This document shows, in pieces, positions 5,939-10,858 of a stretch of DNA of 18,234 bases. Position 1 is the first letter of the stretch. Each line of letters begins with the position of its first letter. Below the pieces are notes generated by a model. It ran no database searches. It worked only from the letters and a program-made list of their open reading frames with translations, and was not told the DNA's origin. The translations under genes were made by a program, and so were the position numbers. The stretch spans positions 1-18,234 of the forward strand of contig JBJDXJ010000012.1 in assembly GCA_051866635.1 (NCBI GenBank), given 5' to 3'. The DNA comes from Clostridia bacterium (GTDB taxonomy: Bacteria > Bacillota > Clostridia > UMGS1883).

Positions 5939-6670
5939 TTAAATTTCCGGCTTAAAGGTGGGCATAAGCTGTAATTTAAACAAATTCATCTTATGCATCC
6001 TGTCGATTTTAGCCTTCTTTTCTTCATCATCAATAACGCCTTCACGGATGTATCTGTCAAGTTCGGCATAAGTAAAGCCAAGGTTATCTTCGTCAGTTTT
6101 TCCGCATAACCCGTCAATGGGCGTCTTTTCCACAAGGTCACTCGGCAAACCCAAAACACGACCGATAGCTTTTACTTCCTGAACAGTAAGATTTGCAAGA
6201 GGCGAAAAGTCCCCTGCTCCGTCACCGTAACGTGTAGCATATCCTACGTAGTCCTCGGAAAGGTTACAAGTATTAACCACTCTGCCGTTACAGCACTGGC
6301 TTACAGCATAGACAACGCTCATGCGTATTCTGGGAGGAAGATTAATTCTTGCCTGAGCATTAATAACCAAGTCCTTATCCATAGCATTCCAGACGCCTTC
6401 CACAGCATCCTTTATATTGACAACATATTTTTTTATGCCCAGATGGTCACATAATTTATGTGAACAGTCAATATCAAACTGGTCACCGCAAGGCATAAGC
6501 ACACCGATAACCCTGTCCTTGCCGAGAGCTTCAACACAAAGTGCCGCCGATACTGAAGAATCCTTACCCCCTGAAATACCTAAAACAGCATTACAGCCCG
6601 GACCGTTTTCTTCAAAAAACTTTCTTATCCATTCAACGCAATCATTTTTAACCTTCACAGCATCAAACAT
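5939..6670 (-). CDS. nadE: NH3-dependent NAD+ synthetase (no glutaminase domain)
   Basis: PP-loop GISGGKDSS, then NLPPRIRM, NTCNLSEDYVGYATRYGDGAGD and KTPIDGL...TDEDNLGFTY. Start at ATG 6670, 6 nt after GGAG. Confidence 0.93.
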   Translation of the reverse strand: MFDAVKVKNDCVEWIRKFFEENGPGCNAVLGISGGKDSSVSAALCVEALGKDRVIGVLMPCGDQFDIDCSHKLCDHLGIKKYVVNIKDAVEGVWNAMDKDLVINAQARINLPPRIRMSVVYAVSQCCNGRVVNTCNLSEDYVGYATRYGDGAGDFSPLANLTVQEVKAIGRVLGLPSDLVEKTPIDGLCGKTDEDNLGFTYAELDRYIREGVIDDEEKKAKIDRMHKMNLFKLQLMPTFKPEI

Positions 6671-6862
6671 AATAATCTCCATTCCGCCGCCCTGCCAAGG
6701 CACAAATAGTAATTAAATTTCTCTTATCCGCAGGGCAAGGAATGATAAGAGATTATTACGCCCATGTGCGTTTTTAAGGCAACGCCTCGGAAAATTTCGC
6801 ACGGGCAATTAAATCTGCCTGAGGCATAACGTGAAAGGAACTTTCACGTTATCATCTCCTCC
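6671..6862 (-). promoter_or_regulatory. Structured 5' leader of nadE (candidate riboswitch or translational attenuator)
   Basis: A 12-bp hairpin at 6826-6852, a stem 6798-6806/6760-6770, an SD-sequestering helix 6730-6757/6671-6695 and a competing hairpin 6744-6752/6720-6728. Confidence 0.6.
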
Positions 6863-6867
6863 TCCAC

Positions 6868-6896
6868 ATTATAGCACAAGGATAATGAGTTTTCAA
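6868..6896 (-). promoter_or_regulatory. SigA-type promoter of nadE
   Basis: Minus strand TTGAAA-N17-TATAAT with a TG extended -10, immediately after the stop of the upstream gene. Confidence 0.78.
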
Positions 6897-8293: not shown

Positions 8294-8500
8294 CTAATCC
8301 TCCTTAAACTCAAGTATATCCCCCGGCTGACATTGAAGGACTTTACAAATATCCTCCAAAGTTGAAAACCTTACGGCTTTTGCCTTGTTATTTTTTAATA
8401 TGGACAGGTTTGCAGGTGTAATGCCTATCTTTTCTGCCAATTCCATAAGCCCTATTTTCCGCTTTGCCATCATGACATCTAAGTTTATAATTATCGGCAT
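8294..8500 (-). CDS. Small XRE/Cro-type HTH transcriptional regulator (YozG-like)
   Basis: MPIIINLDVMMAKRK...ELAEKIGITPANLSILKNNKAKAVRFSTL..IC..L.CQPGDILE is the typical YozG-family sequence. SD GAGGTG. Confidence 0.92.
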   Translation of the reverse strand: MPIIINLDVMMAKRKIGLMELAEKIGITPANLSILKNNKAKAVRFSTLEDICKVLQCQPGDILEFKED

Positions 8501-8509
8501 ATCATCACC

Positions 8510-8962
8510 TCATATAGTCAATTCGTTTTCAATTCTGTAATTGATAGCTTGCTTGAACAAGTCCTTTAATGTCAGGCAAAACAAACATGCTATTGCAAAA
8601 ATAAGTGAAATTGTCACACTGCCTACAGTAAACGCCAAAACCGACTGCACCGCAAAGATTATACAGCTAAGCATTGCGGCAATAGCCATGTGCCTGAATG
8701 ATGCCACATTTTCCTCTACAAAAGGACTGCCTTCAAGCAAGGTTTTATACATTTTCTTTATATTAAAAAGTATGTATACTGCACAGACACCTCCAAGTGT
8801 CAATGTCACACGGTAAACATCTTCATAATTTTGTGAATATCCAAAAAGCTTTATAAGACTGCCTATTGTAAAAGGCACTGCCGCAGTACAAAAGATACCC
8901 CCGTAAAACATTATTTCAACTACCCATTTTGCAATATGGTGAATAATACTCTTTTTATACAT
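8510..8962 (-). CDS. DUF2975-family membrane protein (YoaS-like)
   Basis: Four TM segments, the motif PF..ENV..FR and the C-terminal F.QAI..R.ENELTI. It directly precedes the YozG-like HTH. Confidence 0.85.
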   Translation of the reverse strand: MYKKSIIHHIAKWVVEIMFYGGIFCTAAVPFTIGSLIKLFGYSQNYEDVYRVTLTLGGVCAVYILFNIKKMYKTLLEGSPFVEENVASFRHMAIAAMLSCIIFAVQSVLAFTVGSVTISLIFAIACLFCLTLKDLFKQAINYRIENELTI

Positions 8963-10565: not shown

Positions 10566-10740
10566 GTGAAATATCAAGCTAAGCTTGATGTGAAATAATT
10601 TACTTCGCAAATTGTGAAATTTGAAACTATTGTTTCAAGTGAAATGAAATAAATCCACACGCCGCAAGGCGTATTTCACATTGTGTAGCAATATTTCACG
10701 CCCGAAGGGTATTTCACAAATCCGATAGGATTTATTTCGT
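10566..10740. repeat. GTGAAAT / ATTTCAC heptamer-hairpin ladder
   Basis: GTGAAAT at 10566, 10590, 10614 and 10639. ATTTCAC at 10673, 10693 and 10711, plus ATTTCGT at 10734. Each spacer contains a different mini-hairpin. Confidence 0.8.
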
Positions 10741-10741
10741 T

Positions 10742-10782
10742 GAAAAAATGGCAGGTTTTCTATCAAAACCTACCATTTTTTC
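10742..10782 (-). terminator. Intrinsic terminator hairpin directly after the tRNA CCA
   Basis: Minus strand GAAAAAATGGTAGGTTTT-gatag-AAAACCTGCCATTTTTTC. Confidence 0.75.
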
Positions 10783-10858
10783 TGGCTCCTCCAGCTGGAC
10801 TTGAACCAGCGACATCATGATTAACAGTCATGCGCTCTACCGACTGAGCTATAGAGGA
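10783..10858 (-). tRNA. tRNA-Asn (anticodon GTT)
   Basis: Reverse complement TCCTCTATAGCTCAGTCGGTAGAGCGCATGACTGTTAATCATGATGTCGCTGGTTCAAGTCCAGCTGGAGGAGCCA forms a 76-nt cloverleaf with TTC T-loop and encoded CCA. Confidence 0.97.

Follow-up and report, generated by a model that had tools for sequence, protein, structure and literature searches.

We report that the leader of nadE in this Clostridia genome is one copy of a dispersed repeat of ~181 nt, and we hold it virtually certain that it is such a repeat and not an element specific to nadE. The repeat is undescribed in Rfam, widespread and probably a mobile leader cassette. The reading that we favor, and consider reasonably likely, is that the nadE leader is a copy of a multi-copy mobile or duplicative cassette that carries its own Shine-Dalgarno (SD) sequence in a bistable fold and acts as a generic translational throttle or switch. 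Coordinates are positions in the window, i.e., the whole stretch of 18,234 nt that was analyzed, and the nadE leader is read on its minus strand.

A probable displaced ribosome-binding site upstream of nadE

The gene at 5939-6670 (minus strand) encodes a NAD synthase of 243 aa (PF02540, E 7.3e-52), as the earlier note on this DNA had assigned it. Its upstream neighbor, a DUF4153 gene, has its stop codon at 6902-6900 (minus strand), upstream of the native nadE promoter at 6868-6896 (minus strand). This promoter consists of TTGAAA (6896-6891), 17 nt and TGcTATAAT (-10 at 6873-6868), agrees with the consensus at 11 of 12 positions and includes the TG extension. It lies outside the repeat, on its upstream side, and TTGAAA...TA(A/G)AAT is also present before nadE in five of five repeat-free relatives of the same genus. 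A purine tract, GGAGGAGGAG (6856-6865, minus strand), which we read as the native nadE SD, is now found 3 nt upstream of the repeat; its counterpart in the congener G007, AAAAGGAGATGAAGTC, stands immediately before the ATG. The repeat itself occupies 6671-6852 (minus strand), and the nadE ATG at 6670 abuts it.

No Rfam family matches the leader at gathering score, the only matches in the window being a tRNA and a Gut-1 RNA near 10.7 kb. Lowering the threshold to E<=10 brings up three chance hits between 6600 and 6960, with 13-17 bits against cut-offs of 43-100. The tRNA (72 bits) adjoins the Gut-1 RNA (68.4 bits; gathering score 50) at 10668-10858 (minus strand). The DUF4153 gene is itself immediately preceded, at 8294-8962 (minus strand), by a small gene of the HTH_26 (Cro/C1-type) family and one of DUF2975; all three genes are on the nadE strand.

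A dispersed repeat anchored at start codons

A BLAST search with the leader against its own genome (G000; 2.33 Mb in 63 contigs, 96.6% complete) returned 13 hits, counting the window's copy, which is 93% identical over 184 nt to a copy on contig C31 that precedes an unrelated hydrolase gene. We built a covariance model, R1, from 25 copies (181 positions, 48 pairs). It recognizes the window's copy as full-length (189.4 bits, E 1.8e-48, model positions 1-181), a member of what we term the S family, and has 34 matches in the own genome at E<=0.01, of which 31 were examined and 12 are of the start-adjacent type. When the own copies are aligned with their flanks, similarity begins at (T)TAACGTGAAAG, full copies end in GGAGATTATT or a variant of it, followed by ATG, and the sequences past the ATG are unrelated. 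Each of the 12 copies is directly followed by the ATG of an ORF, these ORFs being 143-697 aa long and two of them duplicates. Apart from nadE, which was identified by family search (PF02540), these ORFs were named from sequence reading: they encode an MBL-fold hydrolase, LexA, a LysR regulator, a dCMP deaminase, a lectin/SLH protein, a type III glutamine synthetase (glnA), DnaA (behind a 5'-shortened copy), a WecA/MraY-type transferase, an S24-like protein and a function-unassigned protein.

The same position rule holds in other genomes. Among 40 full-length R1 hits from 12 other genomes, picked by score alone, a start codon lies at offset 0 in 29 (with an ORF of at least 100 aa or one leaving the fetched 700 nt), and an ATG at offset 0-4 opens at least 100 aa, or an ORF running off the 700 nt, in 39; 335 of 20000 random positions in the own genome pass as a control. 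In the first relatives, picked by BLAST, 16 of 21 copies directly abut the start of a long ORF. On the other side of the element, an SD-like tetramer is present within the preceding 15 nt in 59 of 64 copies, compared with 3388 of 20000 random 15-mers. With an SD-like tract upstream and an ATG downstream, the element therefore sits between SD and start codon and supplies the AUG-proximal SD.

Downstream proteins were compared as a set made up of the window's nadE product and 39 proteins from the model-picked copies of the 12 other genomes. These 40 proteins match 71 Pfam families, each of the best 25 of the 71 being represented by a single protein, and NAD_synthase is represented among these 25 by the window's own protein only. 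No functional coherence of the downstream genes was seen (Pfam, 40 proteins, best 25 of 71 families).

The leader folds into two competing helices

The structured stretch, 6852-6671, comprises 182 nt and is followed by the nadE ATG. It opens with P1 (6826-6852, minus strand, like all features of the leader), a 12-bp hairpin formed by AUAACGUGAAAG and CUUUCACGUUAU, in which 6852-6841 pairs with 6837-6826. Behind it comes a single-stranded linker, GCCUCAGGCAGAUUU (6811-6825; consensus GCCUCCGGCGGAUUU), whose columns are nearly invariant; the linker, also written GCCUCCGGCGG, holds an anti-SD-like CCUC(C). P2 (6760-6806) combines a bulged stem, GCCCGUGCG/CGCAC-AU-GGGC (6806-6798 with 6770-6760), with an apical stem. 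In helix A, the 5' strand, which is the anti-SD strand (6730-6757), pairs with 6695-6671. On the 3' strand of helix A, GCAGGGCGGCGGAAUGGAGAUUAUU (6671-6695), the element has an SD of its own, GGAG (6680-6677), spaced 6 nt from the AUG, and the helix extends to the last base before the AUG at 6670. Helix B pairs 6752-6744 with GAUAAGAGA (6720-6728), a decoy for the anti-SD UCUCU, which at 6752-6748 is common to helices A and B. The conserved A/U-rich loop AAUUUAAUUACUAUUUGUGCCUUG (6696-6719) belongs to a 3' core common to other leader classes. The promoter, the 12-bp hairpin, the GCCC/GGGC stem and both helices all lie where the earlier note had placed them. In the own genome, the copy before dnaA (G000:C51, upstream of 19923, locus L008) starts within P2; three TTTTCCACA motifs that are DnaA-box-like by sequence reading stand before it.

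Predicted folding of the 211 nt from 6870 to 6660 yields -77.0 kcal/mol compared with -53.5 +/- 4.25 for 200 dinucleotide shuffles (z -5.53), none of which folds as well (0/200); pairing in the leader thus goes beyond what chance would give. For a nadE transcript starting at ~6861, the minimum free energy (MFE) is -78.8 kcal/mol with helix A formed, and at equilibrium the GGAG bases are unpaired with a probability of 0.0003-0.003, in line with the proposal that helix A covers the SD right up to the AUG. The energy becomes -63.4 kcal/mol when helix B is forced and -67.4 kcal/mol when the region from SD to AUG is forced open, and in both constrained folds the native GAGG pairs with the CCUC behind P1. 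In nascent RNAs of 142-169 nt the MFE fold is helix B, which is displaced once the 3' strand is transcribed. Pairing between the linker and the 5' flank appears in the local MFE fold of 62 of 64 copies, against 942 of 1280 shuffled flanks, in a test that omitted 15 of the 79 copies, the window's among them. Helix B and inner helix A as a simultaneous pseudoknot, an arrangement that the earlier note had entertained, are sterically unlikely, judged on topology alone, since no nucleotide separates the two strands (first loop of zero length) and the second stem is 14 bp long.

Leaders that share the exact 3' 23-mer of the element allow a comparison of S copies with leaders built differently. In the S-family leaders the SD is predicted to be sequestered (median P unpaired 0.0027, n=12; 10 of 12 below 0.05), whereas 48 leaders with the same 23-mer and other upstream modules have a median of 0.32, 5 of the 48 being below 0.05. 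Sequestration thus goes with the S module rather than with the shared core.

Compensatory changes across 79 copies

In an alignment of 79 copies, 95.8% of the cells are paired and 41 of the 48 model pairs show compensatory changes, values reached by 0 of 500 shuffles; slid controls are 41-51% paired. Compensation extends to P1 (10 of 11 modeled pairs; 94.7% of cells paired), to the outer pairs of P2 (7 of 8; 97-98%) and to helix A (21 of 24; 95.5-97.3%), in which covariation with 6757-6755 reaches right up to the three bases that precede the AUG (variants AAU/AUU, AAA/UUU and UUU/AAA). Helix B has 5 of 9 compensatory pairs and 93.4% of cells paired and, being outside R1, gained no advantage from the fitting of the alignment. 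Covariation of the two helices, the check that the earlier note had asked for, thus came out positive for both. The pair counts overstate the number of independent events, since many copies share descent and the 79-copy alignment was fitted to the helix-A model.

Two further observations bear on the strand and the level at which selection acts. Three positions hold a U.G pair in 63-74 of the 79 copies, where the opposite strand would have C.A mismatches. In three copies from one genome, which may represent a single event, a U>C change in the anti-SD is matched by A>G in both of its partners, turning the SD from GGAG to GGGG; copy L178 breaks this three-way covariation, with the change present and uncompensated. 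Copies that have diverged to 65-75% identity retain the fold. From these comparisons of copies we conclude with high confidence that selection acts on the fold at the RNA level. The SD and start region are paired and a mutually exclusive, covarying alternative exists, as would be expected of an SD-sequestering switch.

Three other roles for parts of the leader were considered and set aside. A conserved leader peptide read from the conserved GUG of P1 finds no backing, as the uORFs run from 5 to 62 codons, their frames differ and two copies have GCG; with neither length nor frame conserved, opening of the fold by a ribosome on this uORF is unsupported. P1 as a double-stranded operator for a dimeric regulator was rejected, as the copies preserve pairing but differ in the lengths of stem and loop. 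A promoter inside the element was likewise discarded, with no conserved -35 or -10 and a sole scan hit (6698-6669) that overlaps the SD.

Insertion sites and taxonomic distribution

Three of the sites at which the element is found in this genome were compared with those of relatives and are element-free there. nadE stands without it in five of five genomes of the same genus and three of three of the same family that were examined, and a search with R1 at E<=1 found no match in the five same-genus nadE loci. Three congeners have nadE leaders of 14-22 nt; in G007, the -10 is followed by ACTCTAAAAGGAGATGAAGTC and then ATG. The same DUF4153 gene is present upstream of nadE in G007 and G008. Orthologues of lexA lack the element in nine of nine congeners, and the native lexA promoter with its CGAACAAATGTTTG motif remains upstream of the element. 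Orthologues of the hydrolase gene also lack it in nine of nine; here everything between the upstream stop codon and the ATG has been replaced by 5 nt plus the element, and the spacer of the relatives holds a terminator-like hairpin and an SD. With the nadE, lexA and hydrolase sites all element-free in congeners, three of three tested sites are lineage-specific, and on these sequence comparisons we have very high confidence that the element was inserted in this lineage.

The CGAACAAATGTTTG motif was read from the loci of the nine congeners (L222-L231). LexA itself begins with MVNLSKQ in the own genome and with MAANL(S/T/G)KQ in the nine congeners, and is one codon shorter at the repeat junction. 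The other two of the five same-genus genomes, G009 (L028) and G004 (L031), carry a different insert of ~105 nt with four TCGATAT repeats before nadE, at the same spot. In G009 this insert is flanked by a 10-nt direct duplication, AAGGAGTGGA, that takes in the SD. The inserts in these two genomes suggest that the spacer between SD and start codon is a recurrent landing site.

At the level of the order, R1 at E<=1e-5 detects the element in 26 of 44 genomes that are at least 90% complete, with copy numbers from 0 to at least 53: the highest counts are 53 in G059 and 23 in the own genome (a figure that includes the sister T family described below), followed by 15, 14, 14, 12, 11 and 9. Two congeners have 3 and 1 copies, against 23 in the own genome. 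When the class was sampled evenly, the element turned up in 26 of 150 genomes and in 20 of 106 genera, with at least 17 copies in several genomes. A tree of the 79 copies scatters those of the own genome over three or more clades, interspersed with copies from other families; in it the nadE copy clusters first with the hydrolase copy and next with copies of another genus, which precede unrelated genes. Near-identical copies (91-93%) are found before unrelated genes and across genera, and tandem arrays of two or three units occur. As read from sequence, this distribution is the pattern of a mobile or duplicative repeat and not of a conserved regulon. The element is multi-copy, patchy and insertion-polymorphic, as are MITEs.

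No terminal inverted repeats were found in the element: (T)TAACGTGAAAG forms its 5' end and GGAGATTATT its 3' end, and the sequence complementary to the latter is internal, as the 5' strand of helix A, and not at the 5' terminus. The flanks of 25 copies hold no consistent direct repeat that would mark a target-site duplication, GGAGAT being on both sides in some copies only. The 5' junction varies, falling 0-6 nt after the SD-like tract, while the 3' junction is fixed, with ATG and then variable sequence. A search for a transposase partner, terminal inverted repeats or a target duplication for the element found none of them, so that, with a variable 5' junction as well, it is by its distribution alone that we call the element mobile.

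Selfish DNA, sensor RNAs and the NAD question

The element might be a purely selfish or neutral DNA repeat, for example a non-autonomous relative of IS200/IS605 or a REP-like sequence moved as single-stranded DNA by a Y1 (HUH) transposase, with hairpins that serve transposition and an SD that merely makes insertion tolerable. Elements of the IS200/IS605 type insert at TTAC-type targets. Several features would fit: the element is strand-specific, has a terminal hairpin and lacks a target duplication, its copies come in bursts and in 5'-shortened forms, and the sister T family, which has the same P2 module, begins after terminator T-runs (TTTTTTAC|A...), recalling such targets. The own genome also holds a RAYT-like Y1 gene and a broken Y1_Tnp. 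However, the presence of Y1_Tnp does not track copy number across the 44 genomes: the 53-copy genome has no match over the cut-off, G050, G044, G055 and G046 lack Y1_Tnp, and Y1_Tnp is present in several genomes with zero copies. The copies share no conserved target of 4-5 nt at a constant distance, a mechanism acting on DNA only leaves unexplained why 39 of 40 copies have a 3' end that is anchored to a start codon, and the internal bistable helices and the three-way change point to an RNA function. We therefore consider this explanation unlikely.

The RAYT-like Y1 transposase gene is located at G000:C38:210366-211100 (L160), its sequence being partly masked, and the broken Y1_Tnp at a contig end, C46:95288-95482 (L159). 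In G032, a similar Y1 gene lies ~400 nt from an S copy (C57:19869-20204 and 20584-20765, respectively). No TnpB Zn-ribbon domain was found in the own genome, at its 96.6% completeness.

Somewhat less probable still is a regulon-type sensor RNA that responds to some global cue, be it temperature, an alarmone, Mg2+ or a shared RNA-binding protein or sRNA, and was recruited before many growth-related genes. The conserved unpaired nucleotides of linker and junction, the two covarying alternative helices and the G.U pairs on the sense strand are typical of switch RNAs, tandem copies resemble tandem riboswitches, and the fold is held in copies of 65-75% identity. Against such a sensor stand downstream genes that lack functional coherence, a patchy, burst-like taxonomy (1, 3 and 23 copies among congeners), copies that are 91-93% identical before unrelated genes in different genera, and the lineage-specific nature of all three tested sites. 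An aptamer would be expected before a functionally coherent gene set and kept at orthologous sites, and the element shows neither the former (best 25 of 71 families) nor the latter (three sites).

The proposal of the earlier note, that translation of nadE is under a riboswitch or attenuator responsive to NAD+, NaAD, NMN or some related ligand, is highly improbable: a long structured leader without an Rfam match does stand directly before nadE, with an SD-sequestering helix and an alternative hairpin, but the same element precedes lexA, dnaA, glnA, the LysR regulator, the dCMP deaminase and other genes in the own genome, 39 unrelated genes follow it elsewhere with no NAD family for these among the best 25 of 71, nadE of eight of eight relatives examined lacks it (the R1 search covering five same-genus loci), and copy number ranges from 0 to 53 among related genomes. 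A repeat found before unrelated genes makes the nadE leader no NAD sensor. The search for homologous leaders, which had been suggested as a way to reveal enrichment of NAD genes, turned up unrelated downstream genes instead, NAD_synthase being the window's own among the best 25 of 71 families; homologues before random genes, named beforehand as what would speak against the proposal, are what the genomes contain, the 12 own copies included. What survives of the riboswitch or attenuator claim is a structured leader outside Rfam with a locked SD and an exclusive hairpin; its link to NAD, NaAD or NMN, or to nadE, does not. The element resembles the NAD+-I (nadA) and NAD+-II (pnuC) riboswitches only in that one copy stands before a NAD-pathway gene, and differs from them in lacking an Rfam match, an association with NAD genes elsewhere (best 25 of 71 families) and a place at the nadE orthologues examined.

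Relation to known repeats and riboregulators

Repeats of the Correia (CREE), ERIC and BOX type and MITEs are short, multi-copy, structured sequences that are co-transcribed with their neighbors and can alter their expression, and the distribution of Correia, ERIC and BOX repeats is patchy and burst-like. Classical MITEs are defined by terminal inverted repeats and target duplications. In contrast to these, the element has neither hallmark, is strictly sense-oriented and abuts the ATG.

RNA thermometers and kinetic-window leaders, such as that of the MS2 maturation gene, are translational riboregulators that sequester the SD. The element is like them in that the region from SD to AUG is predicted to be paired and an alternative transcribed earlier may leave the site open transiently; they are leaders of single genes, whereas the element is a portable cassette before dozens of genes. 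Occlusion of an SD by a hairpin is also known for IS200 tnpA (cited as ref. B60 in PMC2965389).

The element is further reminiscent of mobile attenuators, or BIME-derived attenuators, which are described as intrinsic terminators thought to derive from mobile elements and co-opted as 5' regulators (Naville & Gautheret 2010, PMC2965389). The likeness lies in the supposed mobile-element origin and the 5' regulatory use. In contrast to the attenuators described there, the element has no terminator stem with a U-tract, ends at the start codon and holds its SD in a helix. No terminator-like site was found on the minus strand between 5800 and 7100, where helix A is followed by AUGUUUGAU and not by a U-tract. 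As the element has no terminator and its SD is inside a helix at the start codon, any control that it exerts would be translational.

Putative mobile promoters are homologous non-coding sequences found at -150 to -50 before non-homologous genes, some of them shared across genera to phyla, most without an Rfam match and with a mode of movement then unknown (Nijveen, Matus-Garcia & van Passel 2012, PMC3575422). That survey, which names Correia, ERIC and BOX-type repeats, is a BLAST inventory without structure or position rule (PMC3575422). Unlike such promoters, the element leaves the native promoter in place upstream of it (nadE, lexA) and is itself a leader that is transcribed and in which helices covary. 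A switch that bears an SD and is anchored at the start codon is absent from the descriptions in PMC3575422 and in the passages of PMC2965389 considered here. Literature searches by sequence string and by term found no description of the element; the supplements of the cited papers might list related clusters.

A possible mechanism of translational control

We return to the reading of the element as a mobile leader cassette that controls translation. In the own lineage, the element would have been inserted between the native promoter and SD of nadE, on one side, and the start codon, on the other. It brings its own SD at a fixed spacing of 6 nt from the AUG, locked in the 24-bp long-range helix A. 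The 9-bp helix B would compete for the anti-SD UCUCU and form first during transcription, while the CCUCC-like linker behind the 5' hairpin could mask the displaced native SD. Ribosomes may then have a brief interval for loading, until helix B gives way to helix A, or, alternatively, some common factor may hold the B state for ribosome loading. In either case the element would act in cis on any gene before which it has landed. Judging from predicted folds, we give a cis-acting translational throttle or switch about an even chance. The sequence comparisons directly show that the leader is a repeat, that it obeys the position rule, that its presence is specific to the lineage, that both helices covary and that the fold belongs to the sense strand; we infer the translational effect, the kinetic window, the masking of the native SD and the mobility alike.

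Opening the SD would cost ~11 kcal/mol, so dnaA, lexA and glnA should be strongly repressed unless the fold is opened. If the element is indeed a throttle, dnaA, lexA, nadE and glnA in these gut organisms would be controlled by a common, acquired leader, and expression of the same genes would vary between species that differ only by the element. Among bacterial repeats, the element stands out in that it is tied to start codons, replaces the ribosome site of the gene and has two competing helices under selection. It could be regarded as a natural portable part for translation control in Clostridia. The analysis also removes a false riboswitch candidate, and clustering of intergenic regions for riboswitches in Clostridia will meet this repeat before many genes.

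Related families in gut Clostridia

The last 23 nt of the element have exact matches in at least 120 stretches of species genomes, labeled Lachnospiraceae, Oscillospiraceae, Ruminococcus, Monoglobales-type and other Clostridia, isolates included. Of 82 such sites, 73 precede long ORFs, the search pattern itself having contained the ATG. A full S copy is present at about 14 of 54 such loci; the remaining loci have only a core of ~45 nt (UUUCAUUACUAUUUGUG, a GC hairpin and GGCGGCGGAAUGGAGAUUWWW) behind other conserved upstream modules. A blastn search of plasmids and phages in distant mode matched no more than the final ~50 nt, in one Roseburia plasmid and one faecal phage contig, and no annotation underlies this match.

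We tentatively extend these observations to a broader picture, which we regard as possible and rather doubtful: gut Clostridia may harbor an undescribed superfamily of portable 'ribosome-site cassettes', structured elements acting at the RNA level, that land between SD and start codon, displace and mask the native SD and supply a shared initiation core of ~45 nt (UUACUAUUUGUG, a GC hairpin and GGAAUGGAGAUUWWW-AUG), to which the S family would add a kinetic two-helix switch that restricts translation to a co-transcriptional window. If this were true, such cassettes would give mobile DNA a novel means of rewiring translation, that of dnaA, lexA and glnA included, and not transcription.

A sister repeat family, which we term T, has 17 copies in the own genome and has its P2 module in common with the nadE leader. 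A T copy places a 14-bp hairpin, ACATTATAGGAAAT..., directly after a terminator T-run and has a long helix that ends in GAGGAGACACTTTGTTC, and no start codon follows the copies (e.g., C49:43833-43994, C14:50932-51093 and C6:69066-69229; loci L162-L170). No Rfam match was obtained for the five T-family loci and three other S-family loci that were searched. The core-only leaders (L039-L118; e.g., L045, L058 and L116, or L043, L064 and L097) are labeled Lachnospiraceae and others; they fall into at least two other classes of conserved upstream modules, and their SD is predicted to be largely accessible.
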